This document shows positions 14,013-46,245 of a stretch of DNA of 58,193 nt, one piece after another (positions within the stretch are counted from its first letter, which is position 1; each line of letters opens with the position of its first letter). Location: positions 1 through 58,193 of IMG/VR virus record IMGVR_UViG_3300045988_132327; one strand, 5' to 3'. A model generated the notes under the pieces. That model was given only the letters and a program-made list of their open reading frames with translations. It was not told the DNA's origin and searched no databases. This DNA comes from a virus. Taxonomy: Duplodnaviria > Heunggongvirae > Uroviricota > Caudoviricetes. The position numbers and the translations under genes were made by a program.

Positions 14013-14046
14013 CTAACTTTAAATAATGCCAATTATCTAAAGTTAG
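14013..14046. other. lox-like recombination site CTAACTTTAAATA-ATGCCAAT-TATCTAAAGTTAG (13-8-13)
   Basis: 13-bp inverted arms (12/13 complementary) around an asymmetric 8-bp spacer, same geometry as loxP; about 150 bp upstream of cre. Confidence 0.55.
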
Positions 14047-15355: not shown

Positions 15356-16864
15356 TCAAATATCCAGATCTGGCATTTCTACATCTGCAAGAACCTGATC
15401 GCGGAAGGTAGCCATTTCAGCGCCGATATCTTCATTAGCAGGAACATAGTCCACCAGCATTGTAAAGCAGTAGGTATCCCATCGGTCAGGTGATTTGATG
15501 TTCAGCTTTTGCCGCATGTGCTCCTTGCGCATCATCGCCATCTTCCCTTCTTCATTAAGTAAAAAGGGGATTTTTGACGCTTGCTCTGCCGTTTTAGGGT
15601 CGCTGTCTATTCGCATACGACCTGACTTTATGGCATCGCGAGCCATAATATTTGCGTAGGCACGCTGGTTAACAAAACGCTCCTTGTCTTTGTTCGAAAA
15701 CATGGGTTTCCCCCACCGAATCCGTACCGGATTAGCCCCACGGCGCACCAGCTGCGCACAGGTATCTGAACCAAAACCGTCTGCGTCAACCGCGATTGTA
15801 ATATTCGGGTATTTATCCGGCGTGCATTCGTTGTATATAAAGTCAGCAAAAGCCAGCGGGTCCATAGTCCCTGGCATTTCCATTACCTTAAAGTTAACAA
15901 CACGCCGCTTTTCCCGGTGACCAGACACTTTACAGATATTAAGAACTGACTTGTCTCGCCCGTTACCAACGTCAGCAGTAGCCACCCATCCCCAGTTTTT
16001 CTCCAACAACACCTTGCGCCGCGCAGCGCGATCGCATTCATCACGACCAAGCAAATAGCCGTTAATCTCCCGAGGAAACTGACCAAGAACCTTGACCATG
16101 TACTCAATAGAATCGCGCCCGCCATATTCCAGGAGTTTCTGCCTGATGAATTGTGGTGTGACGAACGGTGATTCTTCTGAGTTAAGAACAATTGCTGTCC
16201 AGATCCCTTTCGGGTTGTCTGGGGTTTTAGCTTGAGAATGGTGCGAATCGTAGAAATAACCACTTGGCCTTGTTGGCTGGGATAGCATCAACATTCGGTT
16301 ATCTTCTTCAGTCAGAGCGCCAGTCATTACGCCGATCGCTTTATCAGATATACCTGATGCTTCATCCAGAATTAGAAGCAAATGTGCCGCGTGCTCCCCC
16401 GCCAGTGCTTCTTCGTTACCGAGTCGATAACCTTTGCAGAGAACTTCCCAGATCCCTTTGCGGGAACGTTCATAAAACATGGTGTCAGACAGGACAAAAT
16501 AGGTCTGTAACCACCCGTGACGCTTAACTGCATTCGCCCAATACTGTTTAACGTATTTGAATACGCCTGTTTTAACCTGGCCTATCTTGTTAGCAACAAT
16601 GATGACACGGGCATCGGGGAACAGAATCAAATAAATCAGCAACAACATAGCCGTTAACGACGATTTCCCTGTACCGTGACCAGAAGTAACAGTGGTTCTG
16701 CTCCCTTTTTGCTGTACGGACTGGATAATCTCCTGCTGCTGGTGGGAGGGAAACATCCCGAAAATATCAACAACAGCCTGGGTAAAGTTGTAGCGGTATT
16801 TGATTACCATATCGCGCCAGCGTGGATCGCTGGTGACGCATTTAATCTTGCGCCCACCAGCCAT
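15356..16864 (-). CDS. pacB: terminase large subunit, PacB-like
   Basis: 502 aa; Walker A GHGTGKSS; start overlaps pacA stop. Confidence 0.8.
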   Translation of the reverse strand: MAGGRKIKCVTSDPRWRDMVIKYRYNFTQAVVDIFGMFPSHQQQEIIQSVQQKGSRTTVTSGHGTGKSSLTAMLLLIYLILFPDARVIIVANKIGQVKTGVFKYVKQYWANAVKRHGWLQTYFVLSDTMFYERSRKGIWEVLCKGYRLGNEEALAGEHAAHLLLILDEASGISDKAIGVMTGALTEEDNRMLMLSQPTRPSGYFYDSHHSQAKTPDNPKGIWTAIVLNSEESPFVTPQFIRQKLLEYGGRDSIEYMVKVLGQFPREINGYLLGRDECDRAARRKVLLEKNWGWVATADVGNGRDKSVLNICKVSGHREKRRVVNFKVMEMPGTMDPLAFADFIYNECTPDKYPNITIAVDADGFGSDTCAQLVRRGANPVRIRWGKPMFSNKDKERFVNQRAYANIMARDAIKSGRMRIDSDPKTAEQASKIPFLLNEEGKMAMMRKEHMRQKLNIKSPDRWDTYCFTMLVDYVPANEDIGAEMATFRDQVLADVEMPDLDI

Positions 16865-18228
16865 TAGTCGTCCTCCGGCGGTTCTATCGCGATATCATCA
16901 TCTCCGGCGTCATATCCTGCGTCTGATGCATCATAATCACCGTAAATTTCAGCCGTAGCCGAAGGGTCAATATCCAACTCTTCGTCGTTGGCCTCGAATT
17001 CCCCAGCCTTACGCTCGCCATTGTGGTCGTAATCTCCGCACCCCAGATCTTCAACAATGGTTGCCACATCCGCCCGGCGCTCTGCCAGCCATTGCGGATG
17101 GTTAGCCTGAAGCGATGCAAACTCCTTCGCTTCTTTGTCCAGCTGTTCATCATCAACATCATTGATGTCAGAAACTGGAGGCTCGAGAAGAGTGATAGCT
17201 TTCGCCGCGCGCGCCGCGAGGATAGCCGGGACACTGACACCCTGACGCTCGATGTATTCAGCAACACCGATATCATCCAGCTCCTCGCGCTCACGCATAC
17301 GTATAGCGGCGGCGATAACTCTGGCTGCGCGTGCGTCAGCGCCAATGCGATATTCAATCTCTTTGCCACGCTGTTCGGCCTGTAGGCGTGCTAATTCGAG
17401 TTTTTCTCTGGCCTCGGCCTCTCTGAATGCTTGCTGGCGAGCACCCTGACGAAGTTTTTCATCACCCTGTCGCAGCTTTTGTTCGGACTGATATATCGCT
17501 GCCAACCTACTGATAAAATCGTTCATGTAGTAGGCCGCGTCACTGATTAGACCGAGCAGTCGCTGCCCAGGGTGCATTCCTTCTGGCTGCTGATCACCCA
17601 GGGCGTCTATCTCCGCCTGTAGGCGTTCGGCCTCCTGATCAACAATGCTTTGGTACTGAAGTGCGCGTTCTTGCGCCATTTGAATTGCTAACCGCAGGTG
17701 CTCTTCTGCGCCGTTCTTCATCATGTCGCGAGCCACACTCGTAGTGGGCAACGTGGCACGCTGCACAGCACCGCCAGGGATCATTGCTGAAGATCCCTCG
17801 GTTTTTGAAGCGCATTTATCTTCGGCGGGGATCATTTTCGCCATTTTTTCGCGCAATGATCTCCTGACAGATTCTTTTATCTCATTGTTATTATTGGTGT
17901 TATTGTCATGATCCGAAGTTTTCTTTCTTGGCATACTTCGGAAAGAACCTGCACCCTGCGAATTGTCAATTTCTGTAAATTTTGTTTTTTCTGCACCCTC
18001 TTCCAGCTTTTTTGTTGCTCTTCCCGCCCGTTTTTTTTCAGGTGATTTGGTGCTTTTTTTTGTTGTCTTTACCTGCGACCGCACCTCATTTTTTTTCATA
18101 TTGAGATGCTTTCTGGCTGTATTGAAGCTAAGGCCATGCTCCTCACAGTATTCCTTTACAGTGATCCCTTTTTCTTCACGCAACGCTATAAAGCGGGCGC
18201 GGTGCTCCTCCCAATTAACCAGACTCAT
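16864..18228 (-). CDS. pacA: terminase small subunit, PacA-like
   Basis: 454 aa; N-terminal HTH-like region; directly upstream of and overlapping pacB. Confidence 0.7.
   Translation of the reverse strand: MSLVNWEEHRARFIALREEKGITVKEYCEEHGLSFNTARKHLNMKKNEVRSQVKTTKKSTKSPEKKRAGRATKKLEEGAEKTKFTEIDNSQGAGSFRSMPRKKTSDHDNNTNNNNEIKESVRRSLREKMAKMIPAEDKCASKTEGSSAMIPGGAVQRATLPTTSVARDMMKNGAEEHLRLAIQMAQERALQYQSIVDQEAERLQAEIDALGDQQPEGMHPGQRLLGLISDAAYYMNDFISRLAAIYQSEQKLRQGDEKLRQGARQQAFREAEAREKLELARLQAEQRGKEIEYRIGADARAARVIAAAIRMREREELDDIGVAEYIERQGVSVPAILAARAAKAITLLEPPVSDINDVDDEQLDKEAKEFASLQANHPQWLAERRADVATIVEDLGCGDYDHNGERKAGEFEANDEELDIDPSATAEIYGDYDASDAGYDAGDDDIAIEPPEDD
17779..17913. other. candidate pac site (GATC cluster within pacA)
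   Basis: five GATC in 135 bp, four in TGATC context; P1 pac lies within pacA and is made of TGATCA/G hexamers (recalled). Confidence 0.4.
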
Positions 18229-18617
18229 AAAGCAACACCACGCTTTTTAACGGCGGCATTCCACAGCTTATTCGCCATGTCCACCAGCTCTCGTTGCTCT
18301 TTTCGCGCCTGTTCGACTGATTTCCTGCTACAGTTTTTAACCAGTAAGCTACCGTATTCAGGCGTGCGCCCGCGCACCTTGAACTGATATCCGTTCAGGC
18401 CATGCAACCAGTATTTCCGTGGGTAAACACGATCATCAAGCTCACAAATAGCTCGGCTTGACCGCACAAAATGCCGAATGATGTTGGTTACACTTACGCG
18501 TGAAACATGAAGGTGAGGATATTTTTCTTTAGCTAGAGTGGTGATTTCGGTGACTGTCAGATAGCAGTCAGCCCTAATCATGATATCCGCAATTTCTGCG
18601 CTGCTGATATGCTCCAT
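18225..18617 (-). CDS. lpa: putative late-promoter activator, Lpa-like
   Basis: 130 aa, immediately upstream of pacA as in P1; assignment positional. Confidence 0.4.
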   Translation of the reverse strand: MEHISSAEIADIMIRADCYLTVTEITTLAKEKYPHLHVSRVSVTNIIRHFVRSSRAICELDDRVYPRKYWLHGLNGYQFKVRGRTPEYGSLLVKNCSRKSVEQARKEQRELVDMANKLWNAAVKKRGVAL

Positions 18618-18694
18618 TAATCCCCCAGGCAGGAAATGACCGAGGGGATGATAATGAGAATGTTATTTCTGTATAGACTGGCAAAAAGTTGGTT

Positions 18695-18709
18695 ATATTA
18701 GAAAATTAA
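18695..18709 (+). promoter_or_regulatory. operator-like motif ATATTAGAAAATTAA (weaker copy)
   Basis: intergenic, upstream region of lpa-like gene. Confidence 0.3.
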
Positions 18710-18725
18710 TTCCATTCATCTAACA

Positions 18726-36925: not shown

Positions 36926-37001
36926 GCAATCGCTACCGGAGCAGTGACCGCGATCCTACTCGATCACATCGGACAGGATCAACAGTGTATATAAATACAC
37001 T

Positions 37002-40814: not shown

Positions 40815-43800
40815 TTTGCAACTCCTTCATACATCCCAAGAAAAATTCCAGCACGCCGTCATTGTTTAATACAGAGTTAGTCGCCTGCTCCGGATCGGCA
40901 TACATCTGCAAGGCCATAGAAAAAATCTCAGTCGCCCTGCAATTGCTTAATGCAGGTGGCTTTGATATAAATCTGCCGCTGACAGAACTTACCGTATTTT
41001 CCATATAAATTTTAGACATATATCCATGACTTAGGTCGGTTCGCACCAAATACTCAGCACTGCCACGGCTACCAATATTATGATAAGAAACTTTACCGTT
41101 AGTTTTTGATTTAATGAAGGCTTTGGCCCTCTCCAATAGATGGGGATTTGAATGTTCTATATGGTGACCTATTTCATGCCATAATACACGCTCGTGATCA
41201 CTATTAGCATCAATTGTTATATTCCCATTTCGACTTGTAAAAGCACGAACATTGTTCTTGTGGTTAATATTTTTTAATGTAGATAAAGTCCCTCCTGAAA
41301 TAATATAGGCTTTTTCAATCGTCTCGCGAATACTGTATGCTTTACGGGAGAAAGTTTCATTATCGTGACCACTTAACTGCTCTGCTTCATCAGAAATAGC
41401 AATCCCACGACTCCATTCCTTAGACTGGTCATGTGACACATTTGACGATTCAAGAATCATGTCAAATGCGGCTCTGACTTTTTTATGTACTACATTTTCA
41501 AGCGCATTAGGATAGGCTTTTTGTCCACGTGTTAATGAAGCTATTTCATATAGTTCTGCTTGCAAGTCTTCCGGTATGTCCAGATTAAAAACAAGCATTT
41601 TTTTCAGATCATATCCAATCCCATGATCATTCTGGTGCAAAACCTCAGCAAGGTAGTCAGTGAGTTTTTCCTTATTTGACCTAACTTTATTGATTTGTTC
41701 TATAGTAAAGTCAACACGCTCCTTGATTCCGTAATATGAGGAATGCTCTGCTAATTCCACTATCTCCTTAAGCCTGACAAGTGTCTCAATATACGCATCA
41801 GCGATCTCCTCTGCCGTTAGTTCAGAGCTAACTCCGACACTGGCTGTTATTTTCCTACCAGCCGCCATAATATCGTCGATATTATGCAAGCTCTTTTTGA
41901 ATAACTTCAAAGTATTTTGGATTATGCACACCATCTCTTCTGCGCTTCCAGCTTTATTCATTTCCTTTCTAAATCTTAAAGCTGTTTTCTCTGCAATAGA
42001 CGCTGGAGATTTTAAATAGTTACCTAACCAAACAAGACAACCATTGCGCAATTCATCAATACTAAAGTCATCAGGAATATGTTTTGCTGCATTATGTAAA
42101 ACACGTATAAATTGTTCAGCGGGCACGCCTTCTTCTGATATGTTGCAAAACGTTTCAATATCACAATCAATATTTCTTTCATCTGCGAGCGAAGGAGCTT
42201 CATCTCCTTTTTCAATCGCGTCACGCAGTGCGTTAGCATAAAAATTGCTGCGTTGATAAGACAATAACATCGTTGTTAACACAGCGTCGCTGTATCCATA
42301 ACGTTTAGCCCACTCCTTAATCTCATTAACGGTGACATTGCGAATATAAAAACCAAGTTCCAAAAATACATTGCGCTTTATTTTTTTTGCGGACTCCTTA
42401 ATTTTTTCTGACACCTTCACGATTCGGATCAAGTCCTCCACGCTGGTCGCATCAGCAATTAGCTTTGAAATGTATGGTTCGACATCTCCTGAAACCGATT
42501 CAAACATGGCGAAATTAAGCCCTTTACCTTCGCCATACTCAGCCTCAATTTCATCAGAAACGGCAGATAAAATGCTACGCAGATCGACATCTCCGCCGCC
42601 GAACATATCGCCTAACGCTTGTTGCTGGTGAATAAGTTCATCGTTAATTTTTTGCGCCAGTTTCTTGAAAGCTGCCCCCATTCGCTTAGCGCTTCGGTTG
42701 TTGGCAACAATAAACAGAGCAAGCGCTTCTGCTTCCGGAGTGCTATCTCCAAACAATCCACGCTGTGCGATCACCTCTTCTACTGCCTGACCGTTATCTT
42801 TTGCTTCACGAACAAGGTTAATTGCTTCCTGTAGCGCGGCAATAGCCTGTTTATCCAGACCATTCAATTGCTCTATACCGTCTACCAGTCCGGTTACCGT
42901 GTCATGGTGAACATCACCTGAAAGCGACTGCATTTGCGCAAAATCGCTGGCTGCCGTATTTAATGCGGTAAGAATGTTACGCATTTCCGGATCTGGCTCT
43001 TCCGCCACCAGCCGAACAAGCCTTTCATCCTTGTACGCTTTGGCAAAAATTGCATTCTGGATGCGGTCGATAAGTTGTTTCGTTGGACGCCCATCGGCAG
43101 TAAGCAAACCTGCCGTCGCCGTATCACCTATTTCGCGCAAAAACGCACGAATAAACGCATCATTGGACCGCGCCAGTAGATTTCCATCATCTGAAGGATT
43201 AAATAGCGCCATGACGCTCTCAGTGAGAAATTGCGCATCCGCATACGCTTTTTCACTTGCAGCCATCTCTTGCAGATCGCTGATGTTTGAATCACGGGCA
43301 AATTGTGCGCGGTCTACATCTGTGAGTCTTTCTCGCACCAATACGGGCATAGACATTTGTGAAATGTCGTCAGGATTCAGACCAAACTCTTTTGCATGAT
43401 CGATCAGGTACTGGCGATATTCATCCGCCTGCCCTTGCTCATAGGCACGCCAGATACCCATGCTCCTTCCGTTGCCGGATTCAACAACGTTGTCCGGACC
43501 AACTATCGGCGCTCCGTGGCTGCTCATGCCGGAATCCGTTAATTGTGCCGGGCGTAAATTGGAGGCAATACGGTTAACCTGGAGTTTGCTTGATAGCCGT
43601 GTACGGTCACGTGGCTGGAGTTCTTCCGGGAAGGCCGGATTAATCGTACCGTCAAGGTTGTTCGAAATGATCAGACTGCTGGCATCAACGACCTTAAAAG
43701 CCGTCTTTACCTCTGCCCCTTTACTGGTGACTACGTAACTACTGCGCCCCTGGCGTGTTTCTCGCCTCTCTAATGAAGAAACCAGCGCAATAACACTGTT

Positions 43801-43939: not shown

Positions 43940-44308
43940 TTACCCGGCATAACCGTTGGCTTTCACCCAGCTTATGGTCTGTTCTTTAGCCTGCTCCAAC
44001 GTAAGGAACTCGCCAACATAGTTTGAGATCCCACGCAGCGCATCAATAAATTCCATTTGTGTGGACTTTGTGAACACACCGCCCAGGAAGTCAGTCACTA
44101 TCTTAGGGACTTCATCTACAACAGGATCAGTCTGTTGTTGCGGTTCCGCTGCCGGTTGCGCGGCAGTCCCCAGGCCCAATTTCAGCATCACATCAACAAT
44201 CTGCTTACCAATGGTGACGCGTTGCAATACTGGCGCAGTTTTCTGCGCCTGCATTAGATCTGATAGCTCTTTACCTAATTTCAGGCGGTCTAAAACAGAG
44301 ATGGTCAT
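43940..44308 (-). CDS. DdrA-like small protein
   Basis: 122 aa, between darA-like and ddrB-like genes. Confidence 0.35.
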   Translation of the reverse strand: MTISVLDRLKLGKELSDLMQAQKTAPVLQRVTIGKQIVDVMLKLGLGTAAQPAAEPQQQTDPVVDEVPKIVTDFLGGVFTKSTQMEFIDALRGISNYVGEFLTLEQAKEQTISWVKANGYAG

Positions 44309-46245
44309 TAAGCACCTCCCTGCTGAATTTCAGCCAGAATGTTGATCAGGTAGTCAACTGCTGCACCCACAGTGGCTTCGTTCTCGTCGTATCGACCTGC
44401 ACTGATTAGAGCGTTTGCTGCTTCCTGCACATGATCAAGTTCAGCACTGATGACCGTCAGATCGCGGGATGTAAACTGCTCCGGCACGGATTTCAGGTAC
44501 TCCAGCGCTTTATCTGCCTCCTGATCAGCTTCACTTGCTGATTCACCAGCTTCTTCTGGCTCCGGCTCCTGTTCTGGTGCTAGTTGTGGTTGTGATTCCG
44601 GCTCAACCACATGCTCTGTTTTTACTTCGCTTGAATGATTTTGAAGGGCGTTATACACGTCCATAATGAAAAGGTTCTCCCCATCACCAAGTGGATACGC
44701 CACATTTGGAAACGCTTTGCGGAAAAGAATTTTCACTTGCGCCTTGAATGTTTTCAGGTCACTGCCAAACAGGTCTACATAGCCATCAATATGTTTCGAC
44801 ATGCTGGACACAACCAATTGGCCTGCAAAATCTTTCAGCTCATCTTCATCAGGAAGATAGAGCAACTCGTACTGGCTGACTTCTTCATCTGTCAGTTTAC
44901 GGTCATACGTAATGATACCGTGACGAGCATATTCGTAATACTGATCAGCCTGGTCAGGACGATCAAGCACGGCTGTATTTCCATCCGGCACCGCACCAAC
45001 ACCCGCCGGGCGCGATTGAAGAGCATAGCGGTATTTGCCTACATGCTGAGCATCTTGCGGAGATGCTGGTTGTGGATCAGAATCTTGTTGTAATTCTGGC
45101 TGTGACTGAACAGTTGGCTCCGGCTGTCCTGGCAACACATCTACTTTGTATTTATCAGCATTATGTTCTCGATAGGCTTTAAGTAGTTTGGTTGCCGCGT
45201 CTGCCAGGCTGCCACCTTTGACGTCACCGACATCAATACTGAAATTACCTTCTGGTGCCGCGATCGTAACGAAGCTATCACCATCTAACGTCACATAATT
45301 TACAACAGCGCCGTTATCCAGCGTAGTTTTACCATCAGTGGCAAGGTTATGTTTTACGTGTCGAAGTTGGTCATTAAAAGTTCTTTCTTTTGCTTTATTC
45401 TTTTTATAAGACAGCAACTTATCTCGTTTTTCCTGCAACTCTGCGTTAAGGACTTTCTGTGCATCAAGTTGTTTCTGCATTTCCGCGAGGGCATTGCGCT
45501 TTTCTGTCAGTCCACGCTGCGCTACTTCCACCCGATCAATCATCATTGACCGTTCTTCAGCCAGCTTATCAGCTTCATTGAGATAACTCTCAATATCCGC
45601 CTTCATTTTGTCCTGTCGCTCTTTTGCCTTCTTGAATTTTGGGCTGTTACGCTCAATCAAATTAGAAAGCGCCTGGCAAACCTGGCTTAAAGAAACATCT
45701 CTCCCGCCGATCGGGGCAACAACGTGAGTTACGTTACGCTTATTAAGTAAAAACTGAAATGCAACCAGTTCATCATTACTCTTGATTTTCGCGCCATCGG
45801 CGGTTGGAGAGTGGAAGATGATACTTGTGCTTTGCCCATCAGTCAGTGGTATCTGTGCTGTTAAAACTGGAATATTAGCTACGCGACGAACACGCCCGAT
45901 AATTGCTCCGCCAATACAATTCCGACCATTTTCATCCGCCCCGGCTTCATCAGTTCCTGCTGATATATTCGTTCCATTCAAGCCACGATTTAGCGCACGC
46001 ACGAAAGCCCGCATTGTTTGTGCAAGCCTAATTCTGGTCGTAGTAATGGCCTCAAACATAGCTTCGTCGGACACAACAAGAATTTCATTGCCCATATAGG
46101 CAAGCTCGATATCTTCTAATGTAGCCGCTTCAAAAATCAGATCATCTTCACTTAAATCCTCCGAAGACCAGCGGCTCGGTGTATAACCAGGAATCGTATC
46201 AGCGAAAGTAGATTGAATATTGATCCGTATGGGATTCTTAATCAT
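44308..46245 (-). CDS. darA: DarA-like antirestriction/head protein
   Basis: 645 aa (P1 DarA about 639 aa, recalled); downstream of lydA-lydB-like genes as in P1. Confidence 0.5.
   Translation of the reverse strand: MIKNPIRINIQSTFADTIPGYTPSRWSSEDLSEDDLIFEAATLEDIELAYMGNEILVVSDEAMFEAITTTRIRLAQTMRAFVRALNRGLNGTNISAGTDEAGADENGRNCIGGAIIGRVRRVANIPVLTAQIPLTDGQSTSIIFHSPTADGAKIKSNDELVAFQFLLNKRNVTHVVAPIGGRDVSLSQVCQALSNLIERNSPKFKKAKERQDKMKADIESYLNEADKLAEERSMMIDRVEVAQRGLTEKRNALAEMQKQLDAQKVLNAELQEKRDKLLSYKKNKAKERTFNDQLRHVKHNLATDGKTTLDNGAVVNYVTLDGDSFVTIAAPEGNFSIDVGDVKGGSLADAATKLLKAYREHNADKYKVDVLPGQPEPTVQSQPELQQDSDPQPASPQDAQHVGKYRYALQSRPAGVGAVPDGNTAVLDRPDQADQYYEYARHGIITYDRKLTDEEVSQYELLYLPDEDELKDFAGQLVVSSMSKHIDGYVDLFGSDLKTFKAQVKILFRKAFPNVAYPLGDGENLFIMDVYNALQNHSSEVKTEHVVEPESQPQLAPEQEPEPEEAGESASEADQEADKALEYLKSVPEQFTSRDLTVISAELDHVQEAANALISAGRYDENEATVGAAVDYLINILAEIQQGGA

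Follow-up and report, generated by a model that had tools for sequence, protein, structure and literature searches.

The window analysed here, a stretch of 58,193 nucleotides (nt) corresponding to positions 1 to 58,193 of the IMG/VR virus record IMGVR_UViG_3300045988_132327, includes in the region studied part of a D6-like phage-plasmid, and a cluster of GATC sites within its pacA gene is proposed to be the packaging initiation site (pac) of this element, a reading to which we give a probability of roughly 0.7. The candidate recognition array (17777..17915, minus strand; pacA nt 314–452) is made up of five GATC-centred octamers, ATGATCCC or, read on the opposite strand, GGGATCAT, located in the linker-coding part of pacA, and is best read as a P1-type pac site with altered specificity. 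A candidate pac site had already been put forward in a preliminary description of this DNA, and it is supported here by the homology of PacA to its P1 counterpart, by the position of the cluster, which is homologous to that of P1 pac, and by signs of DNA-level selection on the individual sites.

The five GATC sites lie at window positions 17779, 17792, 17830, 17858 and 17910, corresponding to pacA nt 447, 434, 396, 368 and 316, respectively, in agreement with the preliminary description, which had placed them 315–450 nt into pacA (the sites cover nt 316–450). Five sites in 135 bp amount to 37/kb as compared to 3.56/kb for the window, a 10.4-fold excess where about ten-fold had been estimated, and the window as a whole shows no GATC enrichment (207 observed vs 221 expected). 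The TGATC context noted previously for four of the five sites was found twice on each strand (17910 and 17858 on the plus strand, 17830 and 17779 on the minus strand), giving the hexamer TGATCC three times and TGATCT once, so that the sixth base is C or T and never the A or G of P1; the fifth site (17792) reads GGATCT/AGATCC. Outside the cluster, about half of the GATC sites of the window (99/202) are in TGATC context.

The significance of the cluster was estimated by uniform placement of the same number of GATC sites, scored for any cluster of five in 135 bp. Such a cluster arose in 21% of trials for the window and in 31% for the 91-kb D6 genome, so density alone proves nothing. The array in pacA is the tightest five-site GATC cluster of both the window and the entire D6 genome, the next independent clusters spanning 270 bp and 331 bp, respectively; compared with the rest of the replicon, as the preliminary description had suggested it should be, the array thus stands out as the tightest cluster but is unremarkable in the scan-wide statistic (P about 0.2). 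When the interval was predefined from P1 (pacA nt 140–480), the Poisson P value was 6e-3. Over the whole window, the octamer ATGATCCC was found five times vs 1.9 expected, which is not significant, and TGATCC 37 times vs 29 expected, which is marginal.

The conservation of the sites was examined in diverged D6-group relatives from PLSDB and IMG/VR sharing 70–75% DNA identity in pacA (L004/L005, L006, L007, L033–L037 and L206–L211). All five GATC were at identical pacA positions in every one of these lineages, and the other GATC of pacA varied. The stretch from pacA nt 150 to 480 is the least conserved of the gene, with 43% invariant columns across four lineages, and its longest invariant runs, GGATCA, GATCATT, AAATGATCCC and AATGATCCCTG, correspond to the five sites and their flanking bases. 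Five 4-mers drawn at random from this stretch were rarely all invariant (permutation p = 1.5e-5). Along 6.4 kb of aligned locus in three lineages, GATC was conserved at 5/5 sites in the cluster vs 5/41 elsewhere (hypergeometric p = 1.8e-4).

These data bear on the possibility that the cluster reflects chance and protein constraint, with GATC imposed by the peptides Met-Ile-Pro (twice), Gly-Ser and Asp-His, as might be argued from the scan-wide P of only 0.2 and from the conservation of both Met-Ile-Pro motifs. However, one and the same octamer appears in three reading frames and in both orientations, the sites spanning three codon phases (Asp-His, Arg/Gly-Ser and Met-Ile). Synonymous third positions inside the sites were kept in 5/5 cases vs a 35% background (p about 0.005), and at sites 368 and 434 GATC was retained through a codon switch between AGA (Arg) and GGA (Gly). 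Furthermore, GATC clusters recur in seven PacA lineages with unrelated linker peptides. Taken together, the codon phases, the synonymous retention and the persistence of GATC across the Arg/Gly switch argue for selection on the DNA and not on the peptide, and the alignments indicate that the GATC sites are under such selection. The invariant-run and synonymous-position results largely refute chance and protein constraint as the origin of the cluster, leaving this the least probable of the explanations considered, with hardly any weight.

The array consensus is an asymmetric octamer, and its five elements differ in how closely they match it. Element 1 (17908..17915, plus strand; pacA nt 314–321) reads CGGATCAT on the coding strand and ATGATCCG on the plus strand of the window; its GGATCA is invariant across four lineages and the Asp codon GAT keeps its synonymous T. 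Element 2 (17856..17863, plus strand; pacA nt 366–373), the first of the two sites with an Arg/Gly switch, reads GAGATCAT on the coding strand, where the diverged lineages have GGGATCAT, and its GATCATT is invariant. Element 3 (17828..17835, minus strand; pacA nt 394–401) has the coding-strand sequence ATGATCCC, with AAATGATCCC invariant, and forms a 14-nt direct repeat with element 5 at a spacing of 51 bp. Element 4 (17790..17797, plus strand; pacA nt 432–439), the second site with a Gly/Arg codon change, reads GGGATCTT on the coding strand of the window, where other lineages have GGGATCAT or GAGATCAT. Element 5 (17777..17784, minus strand; pacA nt 445–452) again shows ATGATCCC on the coding strand, with AATGATCCCTG invariant across four lineages. 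In the window, the octamer is matched with a single mismatch at each of sites 316, 368 and 434; lineage L006 has a perfect octamer at sites 368, 396, 434 and 447.

The arrangement of the elements is largely symmetric. On the coding strand the orientations of sites 316, 368, 396, 434 and 447 are −, −, +, − and +, respectively, with successive spacings of 52, 28, 38 and 13 bp. The two members of the “−” pair 316/368 are 52 bp apart and those of the “+” pair 396/447 are 51 bp apart, so that elements 1, 2, 3 and 5 show two-fold symmetry (−,− / +,+), the inner and outer pairs sharing a dyad centre at pacA nt 383 to 383.5 (window 17846). Sites 434 and 447 form a near-palindromic pair with a 5-nt spacer, and the 52-bp gap between sites 316 and 368 (window spacer 17863–17909) is A/T-rich in all lineages. 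A weak match resembling the octamer, GGGATCAC, was also noted at 18161..18168 (plus strand; pacA nt 61–68) and is invariant in all D6-group lineages. The codons that it covers encode a conserved Gly-Ile-Thr in the N-terminal domain, and the same tripeptide is encoded without GATC in lineages outside the D6 group; GGGATCAC may be a distant sixth element or may merely reflect protein constraint. Just downstream of the array, two further GATC sites at 17592–17595 and 17637–17640 (pacA nt 634 and 589) show the P1-like context TGATCA; as they are unconserved in the diverged D6-group lineages, they are probably not members of the array.

The gene containing the array (16864..18228, minus strand) encodes a small-terminase-like recognition subunit of 454 amino acids. 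The matching gene of phage D6, annotated as pacA, “DNA pacase A subunit”, shares 95.7% DNA identity with it, the E. coli plasmid NZ_CP135715.1 carries a 100% DNA-identical gene, and 121 PLSDB plasmids matched the window pacA. At the protein level, window PacA, aligned along its full length (450 columns), was 21% identical to P1 PacA (pairwise E 1e-9) and gave a PHROG profile match to phrog_1711 “terminase” (E 7.6e-179), with the N-terminus matching the small-terminase PHROGs 370 and 51. N-terminal residues invariant in the PacA comparison are W6, H9, F13, G21, T23, Y27 and N36-T37-A38-R39. PacA matched no Pfam family, and in a tblastn search of 50,697 phage records D6 was the sole match. These comparisons support window PacA as a genuine but distant homologue of P1 PacA.

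In P1, pac is a 161-bp site within pacA with seven TGATCA/G repeats bearing Dam sites (PMC10028697); its location within pacA and its TGATCA/G hexamers had been mentioned in the preliminary description. Synonymous destruction of the pac repeats lowered the P1 titre about nine-fold (PMC10028697). The P1 GATC sites are at pacA nt 195, 202, 214 and 229 (HEX4) and nt 325, 337 and 348 (HEX3); the two arrays flank a central region of about 90 bp with the staggered cuts (annotated at nt 276–285), and the annotated IHF site (nt 256–268) and cuts both fall within nt 140–480. Like P1 pac, the D6 array is located in the 5′ third of a homologous pacA, in a variable, poorly conserved linker-coding stretch, and consists of clustered GATC-centred repeats with a TGATC core. 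The two are of similar size (135 bp vs 161 bp), and the presence of the D6 rox site downstream means that the gene order lpa-pacA-pacB-c1-rox mirrors lpa-pacA(pac)-pacB-c1-lox of P1, with the array 3.8 kb from rox and P1 pac 4.0 kb from lox. Specifically, the differences lie in the repeat and in the layout. The P1 repeat TGATCA is palindromic, whereas the D6 repeat TGATCC (octamer ATGATCCC) is asymmetric and used in both orientations; the five D6 elements form one compact array, whereas those of P1 are split 4+3 and separated by about 96 bp; and the D6 array lies about 110 nt deeper into pacA. No nucleotide similarity of the D6 array to P1 pac was detected. Of the seven hexamer positions of pac, a diverged P1 relative (L259) kept six (nt 202, 214, 229, 325, 337 and 348) with changed flanks, so that an experimentally defined pac displays the same signature as the D6 group, in which positions are kept and flanks drift.

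A pac site within or next to the small-terminase gene is a feature of several headful phages, including P22 (gene 3), Sf6 and SPP1 (gene 1 region), and these sites resemble the D6 array in being small-terminase sites in or near their own gene from which headful packaging starts in a sequence-specific manner. The pac sites of P22, Sf6 and SPP1 are not known to be GATC arrays or to be methylation-gated. Their small terminases are not homologues of PacA, for which no related solved structure was found in the PDB (best E 0.13).

The comparison was extended by protein-pattern scans to seven PacA lineages, namely the D6 group, an Enterobacter type, L043, L047, L058/L062, Pantoea and P1, sharing 19–56% pairwise identity. 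All seven showed a GATC excess in pacA nt 140–480 (five to nine sites vs 0.8–1.7 expected; P 7e-3 to 2e-5); the GATC arrays in pacA of the Enterobacter type, L043, L047, L058/L062 and Pantoea, all phage-plasmids of the P1/D6 supergroup, are unannotated. Two motif classes were evident, a TGATCA/G class in P1, Pantoea, L047 and L058/L062 and a TGATCC class in the D6 group, the Enterobacter type (L008/L039) and L043. That the hexamer flanks differ from those of P1, which had been taken to hint at a related but distinct packaging specificity, is therefore consistent across lineages and fits that proposal. In the Enterobacter hormaechei p60214CZ_1 type and in L043, the TGATCC-class octamer occurs as in the D6 group and at the same pacA position, whereas L047, L058 and Pantoea PSNIH6 share the D6-group pacA position but have the P1-like TGATCA class. 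The motif class correlated with the PacA N-terminal domain, TGATCC being associated with NTAR-K-HL or STGR-K-KL and TGATCA with NTAR-R-[EY]L. As the TGATCC class is monophyletic in the PacA neighbour-joining tree, this covariation between helix and motif amounts to one evolutionary event and is only a lead.

The Enterobacter-type pacA, which is 56% identical to that of the D6 group, retains three positionally homologous elements (380/368, 408/396 and 471/447, Enterobacter type and D6 group, respectively); two elements have turned over and the cluster count remains five. It also has an extra upstream GATC trio at nt 157–181 (L008/L039/L212), with GGGATCAT occurring twice, in a four-codon insertion encoding the peptide GDHLGDH, an illustration of the joint gain or loss of pac elements and linker peptide. 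Lineages outside the D6 group have a bipartite layout with an upstream cluster, whereas the D6 group has a single compact array; since the upstream cluster is present in every lineage except the D6 group, the D6 array is to be seen as a compact derivative and not as a copy of the P1 layout.

We infer PacA binding, cleavage at this locus, the cut position, the direction of packaging and methylation control. In this scheme, PacA, which is small-terminase-like and carries a conserved DNA-binding domain at its N-terminus, would bind the elements on concatemeric phage DNA and recruit PacB, the large terminase/nuclease, which would cut near the centre of the array. Headful packaging would then run toward pacB-c1-rox, which would place rox in the first headful and in the terminal redundancy, and Dre/rox recombination would recircularise the DNA after injection. 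From the array geometry and the P1 analogy, the terminase cleavage zone is predicted at 17835..17909, with a cut near window 17846, because the P1 cuts lie 3–12 nt from the midpoint of the P1 array. In P1, the individual cuts are distributed across roughly one turn of the helix.

Cutting may be gated by adenine methylation from host Dam together with a D12-class methylase of the element itself. The gating is made probable by the presence of a Dam target at the core of every element, and, provided that the array is pac, we regard it as likely. The product of D6 orf63 belongs to the D12 class (Dam family) of N6-adenine methylases (Pfam E 1.9e-56), and an intact copy sharing 98.7% identity is found on the plasmid whose pacA is identical to that of the window, outside the 58-kb window. 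The methylase and the invariant GATC core of both motif classes fit a P1-like methylation gating and are not proof of it. For P1, it has been proposed that the pacase binds hemimethylated pac and that further methylation promotes cleavage (proposal cited in PMC10028697). An alternative is that the array is a pac recognition site at which methylation has no regulatory role, GATC being the mere core of a PacA-binding motif. The support for the array so far is sequence conservation, and the flanks (ATGATCCC) are as conserved as the core, as would be expected for a plain protein-binding site. On the other hand, TGATC, which contains the Dam target, is the only part of the motif that both specificity classes have in common, the cleavage of P1 pac has been reported to depend on its state of methylation (PMC10028697), and P1 and D6 both carry their own Dam-family methylase. 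A pac array indifferent to methylation is thus considered unlikely, although it is the most credible of the alternatives.

Several observations weigh against the array being a P1-type pac site. The bipartite 4+3 layout and the IHF site of P1 are not reproduced: the D6 group lacks the upstream GATC cluster (nt 150–255) that every other lineage has, and the IHF consensus WATCAANNNNTTR, with up to one mismatch allowed, was not found in pacA nt 1–560 of the window, L004 or L006. In L007 the same interval gave one weak match, and the IHF site of P1 itself has one mismatch; the A/T-rich stretch at pacA nt 321–360 might substitute for an IHF site. Element 4 is the odd one out, not being TGATC in this window, and the scan-wide cluster statistic is not significant when taken alone (P 0.2–0.3). 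Two IMG/VR relatives with 96–99% identical PacA each lack one site (368 in L019 and 396 in L032), which may mean that individual elements are dispensable or that packaging is impaired in these prophages. In both D6 GenBank records, rox and cix sites are annotated and a pac site is not. Finally, no pile-up of contig ends within the array was found among about 100 viral and metagenome contigs, with one pair as the only case. In IMG isolate genome 2537562191, contig L042 runs to pacA nt 329 and contig L038 begins at nt 320, the two overlapping by 10 nt (ATGAAAATAA) at window 17900–17909, just past element 1. This junction could be a physical pac end or equally an assembly artefact in the A/T-rich stretch. 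In a metagenome scan (66 loci) and viral-contig pattern scans, essentially all other contigs spanned pacA, and given the lack of a pile-up the L042/L038 case remains an anecdote.

The loss of the upstream cluster, the missing IHF site and the unremarkable distribution of contig ends would also be compatible with a conserved PacA-binding or auxiliary element, such as one for pacA/pacB autoregulation or a remnant half-site, with the real packaging cut elsewhere. Against this, neither the window nor the D6 genome has another comparable cluster of GATC or ATGATCCC, the array is close in size to P1 pac (161 bp), and four of its elements show the symmetry that a cleavage complex would require. An auxiliary role of this kind is regarded as improbable, clearly more so than a pac array that ignores methylation.

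Clustered GATC is also typical of SeqA- and Dam-regulated loci, and the array could in principle be a Dam/SeqA-sensitive element in transcription or replication timing (an internal or antisense promoter, or a sequestration site) unrelated to packaging. A terminator-like hairpin with a T-run at 17824–17842 (plus strand), antisense to pacA, includes the GATC at 17830 and might be cited in its favour, but by eye the stem is absent from the diverged lineages and the hairpin was rejected as a conserved terminator. Similarly, an antisense open reading frame (ORF) at 17723–17911 (plus strand) was rejected because stop codons interrupt it in three other lineages. The array and its immediate surroundings contain no promoter-like site, the plasmid and lytic replication genes are far from it, and the homologous interval of P1 is the mapped pac. 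A regulatory element of this type is accordingly given very little probability, below that of an auxiliary PacA-binding element. A packaging role as pac recognition site is thus favoured for the array on the comparative evidence.

A more specific proposal is that the D6 group uses a re-engineered pac, in which one compact array, with two-fold symmetry except for an additional element, apparently IHF-independent and built from ATGATCCC, has had its specificity switched from TGATCA through a change in the PacA recognition helix (NTAR-K-HL vs NTAR-R-xL). This is put forward tentatively, and we consider it somewhat more likely to be wrong in some part than right as a whole. If it holds, D6-like and P1-like phage-plasmids would not package each other's DNA, and D6 pac would be an orthogonal, methylation-gated packaging signal. 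Both kinds of contig were present in IMG isolate genome 2724679172, with D6-like (L017/L111) and P1-like (L169) contigs, the latter with an intact P1 HEX4 array, indicating that D6-like and P1-like phage-plasmids co-reside, the setting in which distinct pac specificities would be of consequence.

On the evidence available, the D6 array shares its position and logic with P1 pac, which is textbook knowledge, and what is new is that the D6 repeat differs, that the layout is compact and that no IHF site is detectable. A D6 pac site was not described in the open-access literature searched, which did not cover the D6 genome paper (Gilcrease and Casjens 2018); if that paper maps pac, the location in D6 is already known. 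E. coli, Salmonella and Shigella commonly carry D6-like phage-plasmids, which, like P1, are potential transduction vehicles, so that knowledge of the D6 pac would give the start of packaging, candidate pseudo-pac sites in hosts and plasmids, and information on the mutual mobilisation of co-resident P1-like and D6-like elements. P1 pac has been used to build phagemids for DNA and CRISPR delivery (PMC10028697), an application in which another PacA/pac pair, orthogonal to that of P1, would be of direct use. More generally, the two motif classes and the bipartite and compact layouts across seven PacA lineages constitute a natural experiment on the co-evolution of a terminase subunit with a site located in its own coding sequence.

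The adjoining pacB (15356..16864, minus strand), encoding the large terminase (ATPase/nuclease) subunit, matched PHROG 2 “terminase large subunit” (E 2e-40) in addition to the D6 annotation pacB, with a Pfam Terminase_6N match (E 1.5e-4) marginally under the curated cutoff. The rox site, the lox-like target of the Dre recombinase, is at 14014..14045 with one mismatch to the annotated D6 rox. On the other side of pacA, lpa (18225..18617, minus strand) encodes a late-promoter activator (Pfam BPP1_LPA, E 1.4e-56). In P1, the late promoter LPpac lies between lpa and pacA, whereas in the D6-like element the lpa stop codon overlaps the pacA start in an ATGA (window 18225–18228) and there is no intergenic gap. 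The −22 box pattern AWGTKACTT, derived from two annotated P1 late promoters, had no match upstream of pacA in window 18229–18760. With neither a gap nor a −22 box match, lpa and pacA may share a transcript in D6-like elements. A protein of 191 amino acids encoded two genes upstream of lpa (19118–19693, minus strand) is the homologue of D6 orf6, annotated as hypothetical, and contains a domain resembling the Thoeris anti-defence protein Tad2 (Pfam PF11195, E 3e-9, residues 102–190).

Elsewhere in the window, three GATC sites occur within 29 bp at 36952–36980, one GATCGATC is present at 43398–43405, and the second densest GATC region of the window, with seven sites in 500 bp, is found at 44027–44526.

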